This document shows, piece after piece, positions 8,356 through 59,806 of a DNA stretch of 64,000 nt. The position numbers were made by a program, and so were the translations under genes. The notes under the pieces are model-generated. The model did not search any database, was not told the DNA's origin, and worked only from the letters and a program-made list of their open reading frames with translations. The stretch's first letter is position 1, and every line of letters begins with the position of its first letter. The DNA comes from Candidatus Latescibacterota bacterium (GTDB lineage: Bacteria > Latescibacterota > UBA2968 > UBA8231), in the NCBI GenBank assembly GCA_965200315.1, contig OZ241362.1, positions 256,001 to 320,000 on the forward strand. Direction: 5' to 3'.

Positions 8356-10401
8356 ATGAAACATCTAGCAAATTTGTGGCTTTGGTTGTTCGCAGTGGCA
8401 TCGGCTACGAGCGCGGCGGCGGACATTTTTTTGTGGCAGATCGGCGGCAGCGGCCTTCGCTGGGCCGATAGCGACTCGGCCCAAGTAATGATTGACTTTA
8501 CCGGACCGAATAACTCGATCCAGCCAGTACTGGTGAGTTCAGATACGACGGTCTTTCCGCTGCTCGAGAATTGGTCGCCGAAAAAGGCTCCGGACGAGTT
8601 GGGTTTTGTCGATGGCGAGCGTCCCCGCGCTTGGAAGGGTTGCTGTGGCACCTCTTCGACGGTTGACAACGCGCTCAACCTCATCGACGGCAATGGCGCG
8701 ACGTACAATCCGGTGACCAGCAACAGCATTAACAGCGAGTACTACACCATTGATTTGGGAGTGCCGGTGCCGTTATTCCGCTTTGCCATGAGCACGCCGG
8801 ATAAGGGATTTTTCCGCTCGGACGGAACCCCGCTAGAAGAGGACGCCATCCCGGCCTTTGAGGTGTCGATCGCCCCAGACACCAACAACGACGTGCTGAA
8901 CACGTCTAATCCCATCGGAGAAGTCATCGTCGAGGTGCGCGAGAATGTCGTCCCCCAGATATCCACGAAATTTCCCTTGCAATACGTGCGCTATGTGCGC
9001 TACAAGCGCAAGAATTCAATCCTCGACGAAGCGACGAATCAGTCGTCTGGGCATTCGGGCACGGCGCGCAAGGGGACGGTGGCCGAGTTCTTCCTCTGGG
9101 GAGAGGGAATCCCCAAGCGGGCCACGTACAAGACGGTCATTTTCGACTTAGGCACGGTCGTCAACTTCGGGCGGCTGTTCTGGAAGGCTACGTCCATGCG
9201 CCTGGTCAACGGCGTGGCCGAGGAAGCCCCGGACGCCAACGCGCAGATCGAGGTCGAAGCGCGCACCGGGATTGATGCGGATCCTGACCTCTACTACGAG
9301 TTTACGGACATGGGGACGCGCGTCGTCGTCGAGCAACAGCGCTATCAGGGTGTGCTGAAAAACCAGAGCGCGGCCGTTACTAATGCCGACGGGCTGGGCG
9401 GCACTCTGACCCTTTCCACTCGGCCCAAGCCGGGGCTTCGCGCCGGCATTGAGTACGACCAACAAAACTGGACGTTCTGGTCTTTTCCGACGACTGAGTC
9501 CGACCGGCCTCTCAATCTCAACCGGGGATCGCATTTGCAGATCAAGGTAGTGCTGCACAGCGAGCGGTTCGACGAGTTTGTGCGCCTCGATTCCCTGTGG
9601 ATCGAGACCTCGCCGATCTTGGCCAGCCGCGTCGTAGCCGAGGTGGCCGAACTCGGCCAGCCCAATCCGGTGCGCGGCGTGGCCGAGGTGGCCTTGGGCG
9701 AGATGACGGACTTCACCTACGACATCAAGGCGGAATTCGCGGCGGGTGAGGTGGGTTTTGACGCTTTGCGGATTAGCACCGGCAGTGCGCAAACCGAGTT
9801 CAAGGAACTGGAACTGGATGGAATTGCAACCAATCCAGCCGGGATAGAGGCTGCCGCTGACGGCTTTGTCGTGCAGCTACCACAGCGCATAAGCCGCGCC
9901 CACAACCCGAGCGTGCGGGTGACCTTTTCCGCCGAGGTCTTCGACTTTGCGCGCACCTTTGAGGGCGAGGTCTTCAACACCGGCAGCGCGGACCTGCCGC
10001 AGCCAGTCGAGGGTGGGGACGTCAGCGATGCGATCGGCACCAATAGTCTGCGAGTCTTGGCTGCGAGCGCGTCCAATCCGCAATTAGTGCAAGATGTGCA
10101 GTTTTCCAGCGGCGTGATCACCCCTAACGACGACGGGGTCAACGATGAGTTGGTCATTTCCTACTCGCTCTTCGCGCTGCCGCAATCGGTGCCGGTGCAG
10201 CTACAAGTGTTCTCGCTGGACGGTCGTCAGGTGGCGCAAGTCCAGCATGGCGAGCAAGGGTCCGGGCCTCAGCAATTGCACTGGGATGGCCGCGACCAGC
10301 GCGGTGAGACGCTCGTTCCCGGCCTGTACCTTTTGGGCATCGGCATCGAAGCCGAAGATAAGAGTGCCCTACAACTGCGGCCCATTAACATCGCTTATTG
10401 A
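8356..10401 (+). CDS. Exported protein with discoidin-like N-terminal region and C-terminal FlgD-Ig/CHU_C-like domain
   Basis: Signal peptide; LIDGN...YTIDLG; C-terminal ITPNDDGVND...WDGRD...PGLY; ends INIAY. Confidence 0.75.
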   Translation: MKHLANLWLWLFAVASATSAAADIFLWQIGGSGLRWADSDSAQVMIDFTGPNNSIQPVLVSSDTTVFPLLENWSPKKAPDELGFVDGERPRAWKGCCGTSSTVDNALNLIDGNGATYNPVTSNSINSEYYTIDLGVPVPLFRFAMSTPDKGFFRSDGTPLEEDAIPAFEVSIAPDTNNDVLNTSNPIGEVIVEVRENVVPQISTKFPLQYVRYVRYKRKNSILDEATNQSSGHSGTARKGTVAEFFLWGEGIPKRATYKTVIFDLGTVVNFGRLFWKATSMRLVNGVAEEAPDANAQIEVEARTGIDADPDLYYEFTDMGTRVVVEQQRYQGVLKNQSAAVTNADGLGGTLTLSTRPKPGLRAGIEYDQQNWTFWSFPTTESDRPLNLNRGSHLQIKVVLHSERFDEFVRLDSLWIETSPILASRVVAEVAELGQPNPVRGVAEVALGEMTDFTYDIKAEFAAGEVGFDALRISTGSAQTEFKELELDGIATNPAGIEAAADGFVVQLPQRISRAHNPSVRVTFSAEVFDFARTFEGEVFNTGSADLPQPVEGGDVSDAIGTNSLRVLAASASNPQLVQDVQFSSGVITPNDDGVNDELVISYSLFALPQSVPVQLQVFSLDGRQVAQVQHGEQGSGPQQLHWDGRDQRGETLVPGLYLLGIGIEAEDKSALQLRPINIAY

Positions 10402-10412
10402 GGGAAGCACTC

Positions 10413-12863
10413 ATGTACAACTGTGCCATCGCCTTAGCACTACTACTCGCCTGCCACGCCCGCGCTGAGTTTCTCACCTTTGACCGCCAAGAGACTTGGG
10501 AGGCCAGCTGGTCGCTCAAGCCCCAGTTAAACATCTTCACGCCGGAAGGGCACTTGGGGCTGATCAAGTTCCGCAAGGACATCAACGCCGCGCTCGACGC
10601 CCATCTCTTCGTCCACCCGACCAATGAGCGCGGGGATGTGGCCGGTGGCATCTGGTCTGCGCTGAGCAACCCGAACGACGCTGCTCTAATCATCGACGGG
10701 GATGCCGCTACCTTTTGGCAGCCAGCCGGCGACGACCCGCTCGACAAGTGGATCGTGCAAATCGACTTGGGCCGCGCGGTACTGGCCCAAGAGATCCGCA
10801 TCCACTTCCCCGATGAAGAAGGGGCCAAACCCTTCCGTCAGTTCAGCGTTTTCGCCTCTACGGGTGCCCACGTGGCGGCCTTAGAGGACGTATATCGCTT
10901 CGCGCCGGTCTATCGCACGACCAAGCCCAACTTGGATACGTATGTCAGCTTTGGCTTCAAGCCGGCCGTGGAGGATACCACCCGCGCCGTGGAGCAACTA
11001 GGCGACGCTGGCGGCAATGCGGATTTTGCCGCTCCAGAGTTCACCGGCGATGCCAATACCGCCACCACGGGGGGCCGCAACAAGCTAGTGGCGACCGGCC
11101 AAGAGAATTCGCGGGTGGCCGCTAACTCTAGGTGGCAGATGATCCAGTTCATCCGCTTCCTCGTCGATGAGCACCAGCTCGATGGCGCACTCGCCGAAAT
11201 CGAGGTCATTACCGTTGGCGACAATATCAGCCTTGGGGTCGAGGAAAAGGGCGGCACGTACATCAATGGATCGCGGGCGACCGATCCCTTCTTCTGGCTC
11301 GACGGCAACCTCAATACGTACGGCGTTATCGAGGTACATCAGCAGTTTACCGAGTCGCGCGGCACGGCCTTTGAAGGGGGTTTGTGGTGGCAGGTCGATC
11401 TGGGGGCGACCTACTGGGTGGACGACGCGTTCGTCTATTGGCAAAAAGCTGGTGAGCGTCTCGCTGACTTTCGCTTGGGGACCAACAACGCCGGCACAGG
11501 GTACACCTTTTTCTCTTCCGACGGCACCAAGACCCTGACCGGAGAAATTGACTTTGATACGTGGATTTTTGAACCGGAATGGACCAATGCCCGCGAGCAA
11601 TACAAGCGGCACTACCGATATTTGTTCAATCCGCGCAAGGTGCGGCACATCTTCTGGTTGGCCTTGCACGATTTGGGTTGGCGCGCCCATCCCATGGAGC
11701 TACAGATGTTCTCCCCAGGCTACCCGGCCCAAGTCGTGATCCAATCGAACTTTTTGGACCTGAGTGCGCTCGCAGGCGAACCCAAGGTGATCAAGGCCGT
11801 CCACTACGACGCCGACCTGCCGCCCAATACCCAGATCGAACTGCGCTCCCGCTCGGGCAACGAGATGGGCGAGGTGTACACCTTTCACAACAAAATCGGC
11901 GAAGTAGTAACCGAGGAGAAGTGGAAAAGTTCGCCCAAGGTGCTGCGGGGCCGAGTGGATACCTCGGTCGTCGTCGGGGAGGATTGGAGCGAGTGGAGCA
12001 ACGTGTACAAGCTGTCGGGCGAGCCTTTTAAGTCGGACTCGCCGCGCAAGTTCGTGCAGCTAGAGCTGGTTATGAGCACGGAAGATCCCGAGGTGGCTCC
12101 TACGGTGCGCTCGGTCGAGCTGGAATTTGTCGATGCGCTGGTCAACGAGGCGCACGGGTCGATTCTGCCGCGTCAAGCCAAGCCCAACGAGAATACCCGT
12201 TTCACCTATATGCTGTGGCCGTCCGTGACCTCGGGGAACACGGGCTTTGATCGCCTGCGCTTGGTCGTGCCCGACTTGGTGCGGGCCGATGAAGTCGAGG
12301 TAATGATCGCCGCTCAGGTGGTTGCGCCGACGGCTATGAACATTGCCGCGGATTCGCTGTTGATCGACTTGCCGCAGGTGGTTCAAGGCGACTCGGTGCA
12401 GGTCGCTTTCACTACTCGGATAGTGCGGAACGCCGCAGTCGTAGAAGCCGATCTGGGTCTGAGCGACGCGCCCGGCCTGTGGCAGGACGTCGAGCCTGCC
12501 CAGCGCCGGTCCAACATAGTGCTCTTGCCCGAACTAGCCGATAGCGACCGCTTGATTGGCGACTTGCAGCTTTCGAGCCGAGTGCTCACGCCCAATGGCG
12601 ATGGAGTCAACGATGCAGTGGAGTTGAGCTTTGTCGTCTTCAAGGCCCAAGATGCGGTGCCCATAGTCGAGGTGAGCGACTTAGTCGGCCGGCCAGTGGC
12701 CCAATTGACGCCGATCTCAGAGGGGCCGCCCCACCGTTTTGAGTGGAATGGGCAAGACGCAGCCGGCGCGATTGTGCCTCCGGGCATCTATCTCTGGCGC
12801 ATAGACGTAAATGCGGACTCGGGCGATACCATTGAACTGCGCGTCGTCGAGGTGGCCTACTGA
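10413..12863 (+). CDS. Exported protein, paralog with discoidin-like domains and FlgD-Ig/CHU_C-like C-terminus
   Basis: Signal peptide ...ARA; IIDGDAATFWQP...IDLGR; LTPNGDGVND...WNGQD...PGIY; ends VEVAY. Confidence 0.75.
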   Translation: MYNCAIALALLLACHARAEFLTFDRQETWEASWSLKPQLNIFTPEGHLGLIKFRKDINAALDAHLFVHPTNERGDVAGGIWSALSNPNDAALIIDGDAATFWQPAGDDPLDKWIVQIDLGRAVLAQEIRIHFPDEEGAKPFRQFSVFASTGAHVAALEDVYRFAPVYRTTKPNLDTYVSFGFKPAVEDTTRAVEQLGDAGGNADFAAPEFTGDANTATTGGRNKLVATGQENSRVAANSRWQMIQFIRFLVDEHQLDGALAEIEVITVGDNISLGVEEKGGTYINGSRATDPFFWLDGNLNTYGVIEVHQQFTESRGTAFEGGLWWQVDLGATYWVDDAFVYWQKAGERLADFRLGTNNAGTGYTFFSSDGTKTLTGEIDFDTWIFEPEWTNAREQYKRHYRYLFNPRKVRHIFWLALHDLGWRAHPMELQMFSPGYPAQVVIQSNFLDLSALAGEPKVIKAVHYDADLPPNTQIELRSRSGNEMGEVYTFHNKIGEVVTEEKWKSSPKVLRGRVDTSVVVGEDWSEWSNVYKLSGEPFKSDSPRKFVQLELVMSTEDPEVAPTVRSVELEFVDALVNEAHGSILPRQAKPNENTRFTYMLWPSVTSGNTGFDRLRLVVPDLVRADEVEVMIAAQVVAPTAMNIAADSLLIDLPQVVQGDSVQVAFTTRIVRNAAVVEADLGLSDAPGLWQDVEPAQRRSNIVLLPELADSDRLIGDLQLSSRVLTPNGDGVNDAVELSFVVFKAQDAVPIVEVSDLVGRPVAQLTPISEGPPHRFEWNGQDAAGAIVPPGIYLWRIDVNADSGDTIELRVVEVAY

Positions 12864-53065: not shown

Positions 53066-54508
53066 TTAAATGCCCACGCGGTTTTCATAGGCCAAGGGGC
53101 GTCCCTCAGCATCGAGTAAGGGCTGTGGCGGAGCCTTCTTTTGAGTTAGCAAGCTGACGATTACTAAGGCAAGAGCGGAAAAGGGCACGGCCAAAAGGTC
53201 GGCTGGCAAATCCGCGGGGAGCATTCTCAGTACCTGCCAAGCACACAGGCCGCCCCCTATGGAGGCTAAGGCCCCAGGACCGTTGGTTTTGGGCCACCAT
53301 AAGCCAGCGGTTAGCGGGACGAATAGCGAGGCGAGGAGCACGGACCAAGAGTCGACCATCAAGTCGTAAACCGAAGCGGTCCGCAGGGCCAACAGTAGCG
53401 ATAGTGCGCCCAAAAGGAGGACGGACAAGCGCGTCGCGCGGAGCGACGTCTGCTCTTCGGCGTCGGGTTTGAAGTAGCGCAGGAGATCCCAGCCAATGAC
53501 GCTCGCTGGAGCGAGAAGGGCACTATCGGCGCTGGACAGGAGGGCCGAGACGAGGGCACCCATAAAGAGGACCAAAGCCAGATCCGGGAGGTACTTTAGG
53601 GCGAGGGACATCATAACTAGGTCGGGATCGGCCAAATCCGGCAGGATGACAGCACCCGCCATGCCGAGAAAAACGGGCAACAGCCCAACCGTTATATAAA
53701 GCAGCCCAGCGAGATAAGCACTGCGGTATGCCACCTTTTCGTCGCGGCTTGAAAGACTGCGCTGGATTAGGTCTTGGCCCGCTAGGTTGCCGAGGCCGAT
53801 AACCAGCCAGTCGCGTGCGTAGGCCAGCCAACTGGCTGCGTCGCCCCGAGGATAGAAATCGAAGCGGGAGGCCGGAATTTGGGCAACGAGGGCCTTCCAG
53901 CCGCCCATGTCGCCGATGAGGACCGGCGTCAAAATAAATAGCCCGAGCACAAGGATGGTCACTTGGACGAAGTCGGTTAGAGTGACGGCCCACATGCCGC
54001 CGGCCCAAGTATAGATTAGCACGATGGCTGCGGCTGCGCAGATGCCGATGGTGGGATCTATGCCGGTCAGGATCTGCAGGATTCGTCCAAAGGCCAACAA
54101 GAGCGAGCCGGTCCAGCCGACATAGGCAGGAATGGTACAGAGGCTGGCCAGCAGGCCCGCCCGCGGGCCGAAGCGGCTGTTGAAAAAGGATGCGATCGTC
54201 ATCAAGCCCATGCGCCGCATCAGCCGGATGTAAAAGAGGCCAGCGATGAACAGGCATAAAGCCGCGCCAAAAGGGTCGGCAATGACCGCGAGGATGCCGC
54301 CCTTGTATGCAGCACTTGCAGCACCGATGCAGATTCCACCACCAAACCACGTCGCTGCGAGGGTTGCAGTGCAGAGCAACAGGGGCAGGCGCTGGCCGGC
54401 AACGATGAAGTCAGTTGAGTTGCGGACGCGGCGACTAGCATATAGGCCAACGCCGAGCATCACCGCGAGATAGACACCCAAGCCGATCAAGACCAATGGA
54501 TTGGCCAT
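53066..54508 (-). CDS. Sodium:solute symporter (high-affinity choline transporter-like branch)
   Basis: DFIVAG, ATWFGGG, GGMWAVTLTDFVQ, QDLIQR, SSADS. Confidence 0.82.
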   Translation of the reverse strand: MANPLVLIGLGVYLAVMLGVGLYASRRVRNSTDFIVAGQRLPLLLCTATLAATWFGGGICIGAASAAYKGGILAVIADPFGAALCLFIAGLFYIRLMRRMGLMTIASFFNSRFGPRAGLLASLCTIPAYVGWTGSLLLAFGRILQILTGIDPTIGICAAAAIVLIYTWAGGMWAVTLTDFVQVTILVLGLFILTPVLIGDMGGWKALVAQIPASRFDFYPRGDAASWLAYARDWLVIGLGNLAGQDLIQRSLSSRDEKVAYRSAYLAGLLYITVGLLPVFLGMAGAVILPDLADPDLVMMSLALKYLPDLALVLFMGALVSALLSSADSALLAPASVIGWDLLRYFKPDAEEQTSLRATRLSVLLLGALSLLLALRTASVYDLMVDSWSVLLASLFVPLTAGLWWPKTNGPGALASIGGGLCAWQVLRMLPADLPADLLAVPFSALALVIVSLLTQKKAPPQPLLDAEGRPLAYENRVGI

Positions 54509-54668
54509 GGCGAGATCCTTTGCGAAGATTTGTTATAATAACTAAAAGAGTGAAAATGGCCAATGACGCCAGCCAAGTGGCGAATCTGGCCATTGAAATG
54601 TAATGATTTACTCTATATTTTTTTCATAACACATTGGGCTGTAACAAATTATGGGTATTATAAAATTT

Positions 54669-54684
54669 TGGCACGACCCTTGCA
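54669..54684 (+). promoter_or_regulatory. Sigma-54 (-24/-12) promoter of the pspA operon
   Basis: TGGCACGACCCTTGCA matches TGGCACG-N4-TTGCW; AT-rich upstream region; 51 nt before the pspA ATG. Confidence 0.85.
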
Positions 54685-54735
54685 AGGTTAGGAACAGTGA
54701 ATGATTAAAATCCACTCAATCAAGGAAGGTGTACG

Positions 54736-55410
54736 ATGGCTAAGGGAGCCTTAGGAAGGATAAGCGATATCCTCAAATCCAATATCAACGAGATGCTCGA
54801 CCGGGCCGAAGAGCCAGACAAGATGATCCGCCAGATGGTGCGAGACATGGAAGAGGCGGTTAGCAAGGCCACGGCCTCGGTAGGGACTGCTGTGGCCAAC
54901 CACAAACGGCTCGAGCGCCAGTTCAACGACAAGCAAAGCCAAGTCGCCGAATGGCAGCGCAAGGCCGAACGGGCGGTGGAAGCGGGTGAAGATGAACTGG
55001 CGCGACGTGCGTTGGAGCGCAAGGCGGTGTTTGCCAAAGCGGCAGAGGATCTGGCTCCAGCCTTAGAGGAGAGTCGGCAGACGGCCGAGCAATTGCGCGA
55101 GCAGCTACGCGAGCTAAAGACTAAGCTCGAAGAAGCGCGGACCCGGCAGGGCACGTTGGTCGCCCGCCACCAAGCCGCCCAAGCCCGTAAGCGTCTGGCT
55201 CAGAGCATTTCCGGGTTGGGTGAGGATGCCTTTTCCAGCTTTGAACGCTTTGAACAGAAAGTCGCAGAGAGCGAGGCAGAGGCGGCCGCGCACGTGGAAG
55301 TTTCAGGCGAGATGGAAAGCATTGATAAAGAGATCCGCCAAATCGAAGTCGATCACAGCGTTGACGATGAATTGAAGGCCCTAAAGGACAAGATGAATAA
55401 AGACAAGTAA
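54736..55410 (+). CDS. pspA: Phage shock protein A (PspA/IM30 family)
   Basis: LGRISDILKSNINEMLDRAEEP.KMIRQMVRDME, W..KAE.A...GEDELARRAL.RK, FERFEQKV, VDDELKALK. Confidence 0.93.
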   Translation: MAKGALGRISDILKSNINEMLDRAEEPDKMIRQMVRDMEEAVSKATASVGTAVANHKRLERQFNDKQSQVAEWQRKAERAVEAGEDELARRALERKAVFAKAAEDLAPALEESRQTAEQLREQLRELKTKLEEARTRQGTLVARHQAAQARKRLAQSISGLGEDAFSSFERFEQKVAESEAEAAAHVEVSGEMESIDKEIRQIEVDHSVDDELKALKDKMNKDK

Positions 55411-55458
55411 TCCTTTGTTCCGCAGCATGTTGTGCAATCTGCTGAATTCGAGGAACTA

Positions 55459-55983
55459 ATGGCTGTGACGATGAGACCGCCCGATGCGGCAAAAAGCGAG
55501 GTACGAAGTGCTATGGAAGGGGGATTCAAGCGCCTAGGTGCTCTTTTTCTCAAGGTAATGGCCGTGCCGATGGTGCCGATAGGGCTAGGGTTTATGCTCT
55601 ACGGCCTTTTTCAAATTCTCCATGCCGATGGTCCAGATTCACATTTCGAGTTTTTCGCCATTGGCGTCACCCAGGCCATTTTCGGTAGCTTGCTCTGGAT
55701 ACTGGCCAAAAAGCTCGATGCGGCCGCGCATTTGGTGCGCTACCGACGGCAGCAGAACCGCGTGGTGCGGCTGGCCCAGAAGAGAAATGGCCGCCTGACG
55801 GTGACCGAAACGGCGGCCGATACCGGGCTGACGGTCGAGGAAGCCTCTGAGATTCTCAAGTGCTTGGCCGACGGGGGGTTCGTCGAGGTCGAAATAACCG
55901 ATTCGGGCCTGATCGTCTATCGCTTTCCAGAAGTGCTTTTCGCGCATGAGAAACACTGGAGCCGGGGCGTGGAAAGTGCCTGA
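55459..55983 (+). CDS. Two-TM membrane protein with C-terminal winged-helix-like domain
   Basis: Two hydrophobic helices, then LAQKRNGRLTVTETAADTGLTVEEASEILKCLADGG...ITDSGLIVYRF. Confidence 0.7.
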   Translation: MAVTMRPPDAAKSEVRSAMEGGFKRLGALFLKVMAVPMVPIGLGFMLYGLFQILHADGPDSHFEFFAIGVTQAIFGSLLWILAKKLDAAAHLVRYRRQQNRVVRLAQKRNGRLTVTETAADTGLTVEEASEILKCLADGGFVEVEITDSGLIVYRFPEVLFAHEKHWSRGVESA

Positions 55984-56018
55984 GACAAACAGGCTATAGA
56001 TCGGACAGGAGGGAGCAA

Positions 56019-56258
56019 ATGAGTGGGTTTTTACAGGTCGCCATTGGCGTATGTCTCATCATCCTGTGCATTGGATTGGTCAATTGGGGAAACAAGTATT
56101 ATTCGAGCCGCAAGGGACGAGACAAAAAAGCGAAACAAGAAGAGGATCTGATCATCCAACGTCTAGAACGAGTTGAGCGGCGGCTGACCGAGGTGCAGGA
56201 CGTGATGATCACTCTCAGCGAAAAAATCGACCGGCTGGAGGTGAGAGAAAGGGGCTAA
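56019..56258 (+). CDS. Small single-TM coiled-coil protein (PspB-like architecture)
   Basis: GGAGG RBS; one N-terminal TM, basic linker, RLERVERRLTEVQDVMITLSEKID. Confidence 0.7.
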   Translation: MSGFLQVAIGVCLIILCIGLVNWGNKYYSSRKGRDKKAKQEEDLIIQRLERVERRLTEVQDVMITLSEKIDRLEVRERG

Positions 56259-56541
56259 ATCATGAACAAGAATAAGGGGGTCGTCTTCGGGGTCTTCGTC
56301 GGTATCGCGTCGTGTGTGCTTTTCTTTTTTGCGGTGGAAAGCCACCTAGGTGCCGTACTTTTGTTGGTTGCCGTGGCGATTTTTGTCGGGACCAAAGGTG
56401 CTGACTACCTCAAGCTCAAAGCGACGGTATCCGAGGACAAGGGCATTGAGCCGGACGAACTGCGAGAGCGGTTGACCGCAGTTGAGCGGCGGCTGACTGA
56501 GGTGCAGGACGTCATGATCGCTCTCAGCGAAAAAATTGACC
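56171..56541 (+). repeat. 62-bp direct repeat (56171-56232 and 56480-56541)
   Basis: 58 of 62 nt identical by manual alignment. Confidence 0.9.
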
Positions 56542-56594
56542 ACATGGACGGAACAGGATCTAAGTCTTGGGAGCGCCAAGAACTGCGAGAGTAA
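56262..56594 (+). CDS. Small two-TM coiled-coil protein sharing its C-terminal module with the previous gene
   Basis: Two TMs, then RLTAVERRLTEVQDVMIALSEKID. Confidence 0.7.
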   Translation: MNKNKGVVFGVFVGIASCVLFFFAVESHLGAVLLLVAVAIFVGTKGADYLKLKATVSEDKGIEPDELRERLTAVERRLTEVQDVMIALSEKIDHMDGTGSKSWERQELRE

Positions 56595-56603
56595 GGCTAG
56601 GCC

Positions 56604-57959
56604 GTGAATTGGTTCGACCGCGCTGTAGAGGCTTGTGAAGGTGCGCGTTGGGCCGAGGCTCTGGAGTGGTGCGAACGCGGCCTAGCGCAGGTGCCCGACG
56701 ACTTGGAACTCCAGCACCGCAAAGGGCTTTGTCTCTTGGGATTGGGAGACGAGCAAGCGGCCATCGCCGCGCTGGAAGCGGCCGCGGCGCGTGGGCATCT
56801 AGAAAGTCACTACCAACTCGGCTTGCTTGCGATGCGCCAAGGGCGGCGGAACGCCCGGTTCCACGAGCGGTCGCTGGCGCACTTTGAGGCCATCGTGTGC
56901 GCGACTGAGGAAGGGCGCGAATATCCAGATCTAGATCGCGTCTTTTTCGCTCTTGGTAGCCAGTATAACGAAGATCCACAGCGCCGTGAGGAAGCCATCC
57001 GCGCGTTCCGCCAAGGATTGGCTATCAACCCGCTTTCCGCGGTTGGCCACAACAGTTTGGGCCAGCTCTTGCTGCAAGGCGGCCAGGTGTTGGGGGCGAT
57101 GGGGGAATTCAAAGTTGCCATCCAGCTCGACCCCAAGCTCAGTCAGCCCTATGCGAATTTGGCCCGTTTGTTTTTTCGCCACGTAAAACCCCCTGAATTA
57201 GAACAAGAATACCAGCACATCTGCGAGGAGTTCGCGCAAAGTGCTCCGCAGGTCCTCGCACGTTTGTCGCTGGAAATGGTCAAATTGGGGAAGGAACAGG
57301 TATACGAGGGATTTTACACGAAGGGGCATCGCATCAAAAACCTGATGGGGATCATCGGCAGCCGCTTGCGAGGGCTAGGACGCAAGGCCGAAGGGGTGCA
57401 ACGGGGGGAATTGAATCGCTTAGGGGGCGAATACGAGGCCCTGTACGACGAATGGGTGGGGTTTTTGGAAGCGATGAAAACAGATAAAATCCATCCAGCA
57501 GGGATCGATTTAGGACACTTGGTGCGTCGGGTAGCCGCTGGATTTGACCGCCAAACTTGGAAATCCGCGATCCAGACGCGGGTACAAGCGGGTGTGCCGC
57601 GCGTGGAGGCCGACGAGCGGATGTTGCGCGAGGCCATTACCAACCTCTGCCTCAACGCTTTGGAAATTCTCGAAGAAAAACGCGGCGGTCAAGTGGTGCT
57701 GGGTGCTGGCTACGACGAGGAGCAGTCGCTGGTCTTTATTGAGGTTGAGGACGATGGGCCAGGCATTGAGGAAGAGCATTTGGAATTGATATTTGAACCT
57801 GGATTTACCACTAGGGAGCGGGGCAATGGCTATGGCTTGAGCATTGCGCGCCGCATTGCTCAAGCCCATCAAGGCGTGTTGCGCGTAAAGAGTAGAAGGG
57901 GACATGGAACCGTTTTTCGGCTCGATCTGCCGCTCAATTTCGCAGGCGGCGAGACCTAG
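56604..57959 (+). CDS. Soluble histidine kinase with N-terminal TPR sensor
   Basis: TPRs; H-box GHRIKNLMG; N-box NLCLNA; DDGPGI; IFEPGFTT; GNGYGL; no TM or signal peptide seen. Confidence 0.85.
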   Translation: MNWFDRAVEACEGARWAEALEWCERGLAQVPDDLELQHRKGLCLLGLGDEQAAIAALEAAAARGHLESHYQLGLLAMRQGRRNARFHERSLAHFEAIVCATEEGREYPDLDRVFFALGSQYNEDPQRREEAIRAFRQGLAINPLSAVGHNSLGQLLLQGGQVLGAMGEFKVAIQLDPKLSQPYANLARLFFRHVKPPELEQEYQHICEEFAQSAPQVLARLSLEMVKLGKEQVYEGFYTKGHRIKNLMGIIGSRLRGLGRKAEGVQRGELNRLGGEYEALYDEWVGFLEAMKTDKIHPAGIDLGHLVRRVAAGFDRQTWKSAIQTRVQAGVPRVEADERMLREAITNLCLNALEILEEKRGGQVVLGAGYDEEQSLVFIEVEDDGPGIEEEHLELIFEPGFTTRERGNGYGLSIARRIAQAHQGVLRVKSRRGHGTVFRLDLPLNFAGGET

Positions 57960-57986
57960 CCTTTCAGCGGTTGAACGAGGATAGAT

Positions 57987-59411
57987 ATGGCAAGCCCAAA
58001 ACAGAAAGCCGTCTTAATCGCCGATGACCAGCAGGAATTGCGCGAGATGTTGTCAGAGAAACTGCGCAGCTTGGGCAAGGAGGTCATCTCGTTTTCCAAT
58101 GGTCAGCGGTTGCTCGGACATCTGACCGCTCGACCGAGGGAAGTCGAACTTGTGGTACTGGATTTAGACTTTGGCGTTGGCCAGCCCAATGGCCTCGAAG
58201 TGCTAAGAGAGATCAAAAAGCACTGGGCCGAGTTGCCGGTTATCATTCTCACGGGCAAGGGAAGCGTTGATTTGGCCGTCGAAGCGGTGCAGGCTGGGGC
58301 GGCGGATTTTATCGAGAAGGACTTATACGTCGAAGACAAGCTCGAAGTAGAAATGGAAAAGGTCGAGCGGATGTTGGCGGTCTTGCGTGAAAACTCCCGA
58401 CTCAAGGCGGAGAATGAGGCCCTAGACCGCGACAACACCTTTTATCGGACCCAGCTAGGCCAGCGCTATAAGATCGTCAGCCGCAGTCCCTTGATTCAAA
58501 ACCTGCTAAAGCAAGTTGAACAGATTGCCTCCATACCGCGACCCGTGCTGATCTGCGGCGAGCGCGGCACTGGCAAAGAGCTGATCGCCGCGGCCTTGCA
58601 CTACGGGAGCAATCGCCGCGATCGGGCCTTTGTTAAGATGAACTGCGCGGTGCTGTCGGATACCCTACTTGAAAGCGAGCTGTTTGGCCACGAGAAAGGG
58701 GCCTTTACGGGCGCGACCGAGAAGCGCCACGGCCGCTTTGAAGCCGCCGATGGCGGCACACTCTTTCTCGACGAGATCAGCAATACTTCACTGGACTTTC
58801 AAAAAAACGTATTGCGCGTCATAGAATACCAAGAATTTGAACGCGCGGGCGGGACGCAGACTATCCACGTTGACGTACGCGTTGTGGCGGCGACCAACGC
58901 AGATCTGGAGCGGGAAATAGCTAGCGGGCAATTCCGTGCCGACCTCTACGACCGCCTGCGGTTTAGCGTACTCCAGCTACCGCCCTTGCGGGAGCGGCCC
59001 GAGGACATCCGGCCCTTGGTTACTTACTTTACTCAGCAGCTATGCGACGAAGTGCCGGCGATTGAACGACGCCTGTTCTCCGAAGGCGTTTTGGTCATGC
59101 TAGAGACCTATGCTTGGCCGGGCAATGTGCGCGAACTCAAATTCGCCGTTGAGCGCGCCCTCTGCGTCGCCCAAGGGGACGAAGTGGGCGTGGAGGACTT
59201 GCCCCCGGAAGTGCGCGGCAGTGGTGGCGTTGCCATTCCTGAGGAGGGCAGTTTCGACGAACAAATCGAGCGCGTTGAGCGAGGCTTGCTCGCTGGCGCC
59301 CTCTCCCGCGTGGGAGGACGGCAGAAAGACGCGGCTCGGCAACTGGGTTTGACCTACGACCGCTTTCGACACCTACTCCGCAAATACCAAATCACCATCT
59401 GTGCCCTCTGA
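57987..59411 (+). CDS. Sigma-54 enhancer-binding protein: receiver domain plus PspF-like AAA+ and HTH
   Basis: REC (ADD, LVVLDL, LTG, FIEK); GERGTGKE, GAFTGA, RVIEY, RADLYDRL, WPGNVRELK; QKDAARQLGLTYDRFRHLLRKYQI. Confidence 0.9.
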   Translation: MASPKQKAVLIADDQQELREMLSEKLRSLGKEVISFSNGQRLLGHLTARPREVELVVLDLDFGVGQPNGLEVLREIKKHWAELPVIILTGKGSVDLAVEAVQAGAADFIEKDLYVEDKLEVEMEKVERMLAVLRENSRLKAENEALDRDNTFYRTQLGQRYKIVSRSPLIQNLLKQVEQIASIPRPVLICGERGTGKELIAAALHYGSNRRDRAFVKMNCAVLSDTLLESELFGHEKGAFTGATEKRHGRFEAADGGTLFLDEISNTSLDFQKNVLRVIEYQEFERAGGTQTIHVDVRVVAATNADLEREIASGQFRADLYDRLRFSVLQLPPLRERPEDIRPLVTYFTQQLCDEVPAIERRLFSEGVLVMLETYAWPGNVRELKFAVERALCVAQGDEVGVEDLPPEVRGSGGVAIPEEGSFDEQIERVERGLLAGALSRVGGRQKDAARQLGLTYDRFRHLLRKYQITICAL

Positions 59412-59422
59412 GCCGAGTCTTG

Positions 59423-59450
59423 TTGACAGTGGGAACGCGCCGGGTATATT
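59423..59450 (+). promoter_or_regulatory. Sigma-70-like promoter
   Basis: TTGACA N16 TATATT upstream of ATG 59483. Confidence 0.5.
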
Positions 59451-59482: not shown

Positions 59483-59806
59483 ATGGAAAAAGTTTACAAA
59501 GTTGAGACCACACTTTCCCACAGCTTGGCCGAACTCTATGCCGGCCTCGAAGAGGAGTTCGCCAACAAAAGCAGTATCCCCCTCTCGGACATGAACCGCA
59601 CGTTGTTGCAAACGGGCTTGATCCACCACTTGACGATGATGAGCGAGCTGGGGCTGATTGAGCCTGAGAAAGCTGCGAGGCTGTACGCGTTGATTGACCA
59701 AGTAGCAAAGGATACCATACTCTGGGACATCTTGCAGATGGTGCGGACATACTGGCGGGATTGCGGGTCTGGTGGGCCGGGCAGCTCCGGCGGCCTCAAA
59801 GTCTGA
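59483..59806 (+). CDS. Hypothetical protein, possible ribbon-helix-helix N-terminus
   Basis: GAGG RBS and its own candidate promoter; KVETTL-helix-helix pattern. Confidence 0.55.
   Translation: MEKVYKVETTLSHSLAELYAGLEEEFANKSSIPLSDMNRTLLQTGLIHHLTMMSELGLIEPEKAARLYALIDQVAKDTILWDILQMVRTYWRDCGSGGPGSSGGLKV

Follow-up and report, generated by a model that had tools for sequence, protein, structure and literature searches.

A sigma-54-dependent phage-shock operon in Latescibacterota that is probably switched by a soluble histidine kinase and a receiver-bearing, PspF-like activator

Introduction

The phage-shock protein (Psp)/IM30 system is a universal membrane-repair system whose regulation is understood in few models. 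How it is controlled elsewhere is the question raised by a six-gene locus in a genome of Candidatus Latescibacterota bacterium (GenBank assembly GCA_965200315.1), which is a single contig of 5.36 Mb (5,359,245 bases) and 94.7% complete by marker count. We analysed a window of 64,000 nucleotides of this genome (contig OZ241362.1, positions 256,001 to 320,000), and coordinates below refer to this window unless stated otherwise. At 54736-59411 on the + strand, pspA is followed by genes for three membrane proteins (g2, g3 and g4), a tetratricopeptide repeat (TPR) histidine kinase and a sigma-54 activator. An initial annotation, made from the sequence, had described six co-oriented genes with short gaps behind a sigma-54 promoter and had read them as a Psp system rewired to two-component control. 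All six open reading frames (ORFs) were recovered where it had placed them, and the domains and the promoter element at 54669-54684 were likewise confirmed. What, then, switches a pspA operon that encodes both a kinase and an activator of its own?

We propose that this is a self-contained sigma-54-dependent Psp operon that is probably switched by its dedicated two-component pair and activates itself. The evidence concerns the ancestry of the activator, the conserved catalytic motifs of the kinase, a promoter and tandem enhancer ahead of pspA, and the persistence of the module among relatives. On the output side, namely the receiver-bearing PspF-like activator and the conserved promoter, enhancer and linkage, the initial reading stands; the relay that it had envisaged from the membrane to the kinase is a tentative proposal suggested by co-conservation.

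Results

The last gene of the operon (57987-59411, + strand) encodes a sigma-54 activator with receiver (REC), AAA+ and helix-turn-helix (HTH) domains that falls within the PspF superclade. It matches Response_reg (residues 9-114, 71 bits), Sigma54_activat (PF00158, 216.5 bits), AAA_lid_14 and HTH_8, contains the GAFTGA loop and has no transmembrane (TM) segment by hydropathy (here and below, the Kyte-Doolittle 19-residue mean). The REC residues D13, D14, D61, T89 and K111 are invariant, and the receiver is predicted to be phospho-competent. Over 313 amino acids the protein is 48% identical to Escherichia coli PspF, which also ranks first, narrowly, among 13 E. coli proteins that match its AAA+ domain (253 vs 244 bits). 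On the PspF model TIGR02974, whose curated cut-off is 443.55 bits, the activator scores 358.7 bits and E. coli PspF 540.9, and 17 other, non-PspF activators from E. coli and this genome score 221-307 bits.

An AAA+ phylogeny against PspF and NtrC/AtoC, which the initial annotation had named as a check on its reading, places the activator with PspF. The best 120 hits of a search for activator homologues were all orthologues, so they provided no outgroups. A tree of 147 rows was built from the best single-domain hits among 1.84 billion representatives, the 13 E. coli activators, the genome's six other activators and five Latescibacterota orthologues, and a second, careful tree contained 60 rows. 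The activator belongs to a 34-row clade with canonical PspF, supported by an SH-aLRT value of 99 in the larger tree and by UFBoot/SH-aLRT values of 100/99 in the smaller. This clade leaves out all 12 other E. coli activators in the 147-row tree and 10 of them in the 60-row tree, as well as the six other activators of the genome; the groups outside it include NtrC, AtoC, ZraR, NorR, FhlA and others. Within it are canonical, receiver-less PspF (10 rows including E. coli, 100/100), the Latescibacterota sequences (5 rows, 100/94), about 15 proteins with an N-terminal extension of 140-185 residues and 4 other short rows, in a branch order that neither tree resolves. The recognition helix L[ST]Y[DH]QFR, or a near form of it, is found in the canonical PspF rows and in most of the long members of the clade and is absent from 12 other aligned activators; the window form is LTYDRFR. 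We predict from these features an activator that works with the engine and DNA-reading head of PspF and is not PspF in the curated sense. Its linker between REC and AAA+ has 12-16 more residues than those of AtoC and NtrC and, at a guess, may form a coiled coil, as in a repressive dimer of the DctD/NtrC1 kind.

The docking site of PspA on PspF is the YLW patch, Y51, L52 and W56 (PMC3791423, PMC6003685). In the window activator Y51 is kept as Y206, and L52 and W56 are replaced by G207 and R211. The patch tryptophan is present in all 10 canonical PspF rows and in none of the five Latescibacterota, 15 long or four other short members of the clade. Given that a receiver is present and the PspA-docking patch is lost, phosphorylation control would replace, or be added to, anti-activation of PspF by PspA. 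Classical anti-activation might persist if PspA inhibited the AAA+ domain through another surface and the receiver served as a second input. The position of the AAA+ domain in the PspF superclade, the retention of Tyr51 as Y206 and the proposal of a second PspA-binding site on PspF (PMC6003685) would agree with this, but all five Latescibacterota and all 15 long clade members lack two of the three patch residues, and we consider such persistence improbable.

The presumed partner of the activator is a soluble histidine kinase encoded immediately upstream (56604-57959, + strand). It consists of TPRs (residues about 1-190), a helical linker, an H-box with His242 and a CA domain (337-444); its match to HATPase_c is 82 bits. 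No TM segment was detected in it (maximum 19-residue mean 1.16). His242, which lies in the motif YTxGHxIKNLMG, does not vary among eight orthologues, nor do the N, G1, F and G2 boxes, and kinase activity is assumed from these conserved motifs. The catalytic domain finds its highest-scoring matches in AtoS (111.5 bits), ZraS (94.5 bits) and the ZraS structure 9jfj, and the best-conserved non-catalytic part of the protein is the TPR core. The family is small, with 166 proteins at E<=1e-5; orthologues are 90-94% identical in most genomes of the genus, 68-71% in four further ones and 44-47% in two other families of the class. In public annotation the proteins of the module are called 'sigma-54-dependent regulator', 'ATP-binding protein', 'histidine kinase' or 'hypothetical'.

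The regulatory DNA ahead of pspA is consistent with control by an activator of this kind. The sigma-54 promoter (54669-54684, + strand; element TGGCACGACCCTTGCA) matches -24 TGGCAC / -12 TTGCA perfectly and sits 67 nt 5' of the pspA start. Among the pspA upstream regions of the window and 72 relatives, 56 of 73 contain the strict pattern, and 16 of the 17 pattern-negative regions show GGYACG-N4-TTGC in an alignment from which the 17th, L062, was left out; the promoter spacer is variable across relatives, with GG and TGC retained. About 95 bp further 5' lies a putative tandem enhancer (upstream activating sequences, UAS) of two palindromes TGGC-N7-GCCA at 54557-54571 and 54578-54592, their centres 21 bp apart. 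The exact tandem is present a single time in 5,359,245 bases, at the pspA promoter; single sites number 331, and by our own estimate a chance tandem would be expected about 0.1 times. The core columns of the enhancer are conserved in an alignment of 20 upstream regions. A relaxed tandem pattern lies 5' of pspA in 43 of 73 relatives' loci, always at about -176 to -213 from the pspA start, and was found nowhere else within those 16-kb loci, and at the matching positions of the 16 aligned pattern-negative regions the alignment reveals a diverged double site, GGT-N8-GCC / GGT-N8-ACC. The spacers vary but the contact bases do not, which we read as a signature of selection on the promoter and enhancer sites.

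Between enhancer and promoter lies an A+T-rich spacer (54593-54668), in which 'ataa' is the sole conserved short element; the G+C fraction is 0.48 in 54500-54999, as against about 0.58-0.60 in the flanking windows. The spacer is a possible bend or integration host factor (IHF)-type site. In E. coli, pspA has two UAS and requires IHF (PMC3709507), and the order there of two sites, A+T-rich spacer and sigma-54 promoter is paralleled by the window locus. In the E. coli pspF-pspA intergenic region (L032:2917-2950), ATTCGCCA and ATTCGCTA form a repeat, 20 bp apart, 5' of the pspA promoter. The reverse complement of ATTCGCCA is TGGCGAAT, which is identical to the left half of the second enhancer site of the window.

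The module as a whole is conserved. The gaps between its genes are 21, 35, 3, 9 and 27 nt, and no terminator-like sites were found between the six genes on the + strand. A scan with a g2 alignment, restricted to one genome per species, returned 80 loci, in which pspA lies directly upstream in 73, the TPR kinase is present in 70 and the activator in 62; the linkage of the kinase-regulator pair to pspA, on which the initial annotation had staked its reading, is thus retained in relatives. The misses go back in part to short contigs or to the limits of the flanks: L045 begins at g2, L059, L065, L071 and L078 stop early, and in eight loci the sequence breaks off within the activator gene or short of it. 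The others are six loci with Longimicrobiales or Gemmatimonadota labels, in which the tail of g2 alone was matched and the DNA examined contained no pspA, kinase or activator. Eight loci from relatives retain the order pspA, g2, small proteins, kinase, activator, with pspA as the first gene of the module throughout. Promoter, enhancer and gene order are kept across three Latescibacterota families, and the linkage persists down to 54-57% activator identity. Across the phylum, g2 is present in 87 of 151 genomes, with 39 of 63 in the family labelled f1 here, 29 of 30 in f2, 18 of 19 in f4 and none of 38 in eleven other families. Five f1 genomes without g2 lack the TPR-kinase orthologue too and encode 0-2 PspA genes. 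Taken together, these comparisons support the six-gene locus as a real conserved unit and not a chance neighbourhood.

In f2 and f4 the module is larger. Here the small-protein genes are separated from the kinase gene by genes for an extracytoplasmic function (ECF) sigma factor, a 230-amino-acid protein and a Band-7/flotillin protein, and the gene after the activator encodes a membrane SpoIIE-type phosphatase. An example is L025:3393-6284 and 9447-11027, where the Band-7/flotillin gene encodes 534 amino acids, with similar arrangements in L024 and L026-L028; the inserted 230-amino-acid protein belongs to no family. Many records of the closest relatives come from sponge metagenomes, and some are labelled Gemmatimonadota instead of Latescibacterota. 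Going by record titles and run labels, the Latescibacterota considered here appear to be uncultured and sponge-associated.

The conservation of the linkage bears on whether the kinase and activator might regulate other genes, their adjacency to pspA being historical and another activator driving the promoter. The genome would offer scope for this, since it has no fewer than seven additional activator loci, together with 18 promoter-like sites of the strict pattern. Against it stand the conserved linkage across three families down to the activator identities given above, the uniqueness of the enhancer in the genome and its absence from the rest of the 16-kb loci, and the PspF type of the DNA-binding helix. 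We regard this explanation as very unlikely.

The first gene (54736-55410, + strand) encodes a PspA/IM30 family protein of 224 amino acids that matches PF04012 (PspA_IM30) with 161.1 bits (cut-off 33.9) over profile positions 3-217 of 220. It scores 159.6 bits on TIGR02977, under the equivalog cut-off of 243, and is 33% identical to E. coli PspA over 221 amino acids. None of the three proteins encoded after it matched a Pfam family. The first of them, g2 (55432-55983, + strand), has no NCBIfam family either. Hydropathy gives it two TM segments, at residues about 35-63 and 73-92, and its C-terminal 80 residues, a winged-helix-like tail, are strongly conserved. The initial annotation had called g2 a TM protein with a winged HTH; the TM part holds, and the winged helix is a tentative assignment that draws on sub-threshold matches, all to winged-helix families (SelB-wing, IclR, ArsR, TrmB, Crp and MarR), with a best E-value of 0.025 for the window protein and 0.00053 among eight orthologues and with E-values of about 0.5 for PDB profiles. 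Because close relatives are annotated at 170-174 amino acids, the start of g2 is uncertain and may lie at about 55459. Among 5.8 billion proteins there are 254 relatives of g2 at E<=0.001; those with names are all 'hypothetical', and none carries a Pfam domain.

The other two, g3 (56019-56258, 79 amino acids) and g4 (56262-56594, 110 amino acids), both on the + strand, are paralogues with an N-terminal TM segment, a basic stretch and an invariant, heptad-patterned cytoplasmic helix, RLxxVERRLTEVQDVMI. In g3 the single TM segment is at 1-26, and in g4, which has an extra hydrophobic segment, a hydrophobic stretch at 4-50 may be read as two TM helices. We take both to resemble PspB in size and predicted topology. 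We rejected homology with PspB as not shown: g3 scores 17.4 bits on TIGR02976 (cut-off 51.7), three of 15 family members match at E<=1, and hhalign against E. coli PspB gives a probability of 1.6%. The weak match of g3 to PspB is probably driven by the TM segment.

Because the kinase has no membrane segment, a membrane signal must reach it through protein contact, and the conserved TPR surface would be the likeliest place. Candidate partners are g3 and g4 through their cytoplasmic helices, g2 through its winged-helix tail, and PspA. That the membrane proteins might relay stress to the kinase is suggested by their co-conservation, and we hold a relay through g3/g4 or g2, contact with PspA and a cytoplasmic ligand each to be a tentative proposal.

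If PspA were the ligand of the TPRs, the Psp partner switch would have been relocated: free PspA would keep the kinase inactive or acting as a phosphatase, damage to the membrane would draw PspA there and release the kinase, and g2-g4 would be anchors or effectors like LiaI or PspM. PspA of E. coli is indeed both effector and negative regulator (PMC9239133, PMC3791423). With the docking patch of the activator lost, PspA could feed back only on some other target; outside its catalytic regions the kinase is most conserved in the TPR core, and pspA always stands first in the module. However, the g3/g4 cytoplasmic helix, itself highly conserved, would suit the TPRs as a ligand just as well, and we put the proposal forward as a possible but doubtful one.

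Alternatively, the kinase might sense a cytoplasmic cue, such as unexported or misfolded proteins bound to its TPRs, with the membrane proteins merely co-expressed effectors and no relay. The solubility of the kinase accords with this, TPR domains commonly bind peptides, and the insertions in f2 and f4 indicate that tight adjacency of the membrane-protein and kinase genes is not required. On the other hand, g2, the small proteins, kinase and activator are gained and lost together, and the invariance of the g3/g4 cytoplasmic helix suggests a specific partner, so that a purely cytoplasmic cue seems rather unlikely to us.

Canonical Psp regulators were sought in the whole genome. PspC (PF04024) gave no match, which extends to the genome the absence of pspC noted in the initial annotation; PspB (PF06667) gave none in the genome and none above cut-off in 121 genomes of the phylum. 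No canonical PspF scored above cut-off, the best match to the PspF model being the operon activator itself. A canonical pspF or pspBC elsewhere, which the initial annotation had recognised as fatal to its reading, was thus not found in this genome. The sole short activator, L007 (368 amino acids), was considered as a hidden PspF and rejected, as it lies outside the PspF clade and far from all three pspA genes. L007 (genome positions 4529413-4530102) has an N-terminal stretch of only about 50 residues ahead of the AAA+ domain and is matched best by a NifA-like model. There are at least seven further sigma-54 activator loci, a single copy of rpoN and, as counted by the strict pattern, 18 sigma-54 promoter-like sites in the genome. 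Near-identical sigma-54 16-mers, TGGCATGGAT[C/G/A]TTGCA, occur at genome positions 1623883, 1640618, 1945286 and 2093993, which suggests that a repeated gene family or element may be under sigma-54 control. The PspA paralogue L002 (378594-379280) follows genes for DnaJ-domain and CesT_Tir_1/YbjN-like proteins and precedes an amine-oxidase-like gene; the paralogue L003 (1130041-1130667) lies among small ORFs of no known kind and adjoins a fatty-acid desaturase. Neither has a kinase or activator among the neighbouring ORFs scanned.

Sequencing archives offer a hint of expression. At least half of the words sampled from this stretch occur in each of seven runs, two of which are metatranscriptome libraries from one study. 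Their contigs cover 54821-58621, which reaches from pspA into the middle part of the activator gene, and 54790-57326, from pspA to the kinase. No contig from an RNA library covers 54517-54789, a gap that we do not take to mark a transcript start, and one DNA run spans the whole stretch. The RNA-library contigs are compatible with co-transcription in situ.

Downstream of the activator, an ORF of 107 amino acids without a family (59483-59806) is 59-97% identical among f1 relatives, and a near-consensus sigma-70-like promoter (59423-59450) lies between the activator stop and this ORF. The ORF is probably a separate unit.

Discussion

We envisage the following sequence of events. The soluble TPR kinase would autophosphorylate at His242 and hand the phosphate to Asp61 of the activator. 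The phosphorylated activator would assemble on both TGGC-N7-GCCA sites, and its GAFTGA loop would open the sigma-54 promoter. The operon's products, pspA, the three membrane proteins, the kinase and the activator, would then be made together, which would amount to positive autoregulation. We infer phosphotransfer, enhancer binding and this positive feedback from the structure of the operon and from knowledge of the protein families, and the entire input side would be conditional in the same way.

Several points weigh against this proposal. The HisKA Pfam model finds no match in the kinase, whose dimerisation and histidine domain is divergent. 'PspF' is not the proper name of the activator, as its score is under the curated cut-off. 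That this activator, rather than one of the other sigma-54 activators of the genome, binds the enhancer is suggested by adjacency, co-conservation and the PspF-like helix. An operon that is fully self-dependent would need a basal promoter, because it requires its own products, and only consensus-like sigma-70 sites were seen, none of which could be assigned with confidence. Finally, the RNA-library contigs do not prove a single transcript, and DNA carry-over into these libraries is possible.

Comparison with known systems clarifies what is shared and what is particular to this module. Enterobacterial PspF-pspABC(DE) likewise has the effector PspA under a sigma-54 promoter with two upstream activator sites (PMC3709507). 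Its PspF has AAA+ and HTH domains in one clade with the window activator, and small membrane proteins are encoded after pspA in both. In contrast to enterobacterial PspF, the window activator has a receiver and is without the YLW/W56 patch, and its gene is co-oriented and terminal in the operon instead of divergent; furthermore, the window encodes a kinase, no PspC and no PspB above threshold. The regulators of the LiaFSR-LiaIH system of Bacillus subtilis are autoregulated within their own locus. As in the window, a PspA homologue there is under two-component control and accompanied by small membrane proteins (PMC11237479). However, LiaS is a membrane kinase and LiaR a REC-HTH regulator of the sigma-70 type, whereas the window has a soluble TPR kinase and a sigma-54 AAA+ activator, and none of the six window proteins matches the LiaF or Toastrack family. 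ZraPSR is an envelope-stress system, and both it and AtoSC resemble the window in pairing a kinase with a REC-AAA+-HTH activator, with close catalytic domains. ZraS and AtoS, in contrast, are membrane kinases; the window kinase is soluble, the window activator lies outside the AtoC, ZraR and NtrC groups, and the effector is PspA. In mycobacteria, ClgR-PspA-PspM-PspN similarly combines a lineage-restricted membrane protein of unknown fold encoded after pspA with a regulator of its own (PMC11237479). ClgR, unlike the window regulators, has a Cro-like HTH and operates without sigma-54, kinase or receiver.

Surveys of Psp systems describe PspF variants with ACT or PAS domains, Lia-type two-component operons and many partners (PMC11237479, PMC9239133). 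A receiver-bearing PspF or a TPR kinase is not described in the available text of these two surveys, supplements aside, and words beginning Latescibacter or Gemmatimonad are absent from that of PMC11237479. The available text on the D. vulgaris sigma-54 regulome includes a psp operon with a receiver-less PspF-like regulator. Literature searches combining PspF with receiver or two-component, PspA with sigma-54 and kinase, and Latescibacter* with phage shock found no such layout. The initial impression that this architecture is not a described Psp variant therefore holds for the survey texts, supplements aside, and for these searches. Comparison gives strong support to the view that the module would constitute a third Psp wiring, in which an activator of the PspF type is combined with Lia-like phosphorylation control and a kinase without a membrane anchor.

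Receiver-bearing activators also make up several branches of the PspF clade outside this phylum. Of the long clade members, 10 of 14 match Response_reg at E<=1e-5; where named, they are called 'NtrC family response regulator' or, in some cases, 'PspF', and a single cluster bears Kofleriaceae labels. Receiver-bearing members of the clade that come from other lineages are P0131, P0135, P0136, P0141-P0145, P0151 and P0155, and likewise P0161, P0167, P0169 and P0172. These members share the PspF recognition helix and are missing W56. When metagenomes were searched with an alignment built from receiver-bearing, PspF-like sequences of other phyla, 80 loci came back, consisting of generic NtrC-type regulators at 35-46% identity. 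One of them (L174) has PspA nearby, and there a canonical short PspF stands with pspA and a PspC-like gene.

A broader evolutionary scenario can be offered with considerable doubt, and we judge it rather less probable than not. The Psp partner switch may have moved from the activator to the kinase, such that PspA, PspB-like g3/g4 (with g2), or both would be read by the TPR kinase and the result passed on by phosphorylation. Receiver-less PspF with W56 would then perhaps be a derived offshoot of an older regulator under two-component control.

The loss or gain of the W56 patch would provide a natural experiment that sets AAA+ activators regulated in trans against those regulated by a receiver. 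Three unannotated families, g2, g3/g4 and the TPR kinase, become candidates for membrane-stress sensing. The promoter, enhancer, kinase and activator form a compact, portable set that could be reconstituted in E. coli, and the module would open a first functional approach to how Latescibacterota signal stress.

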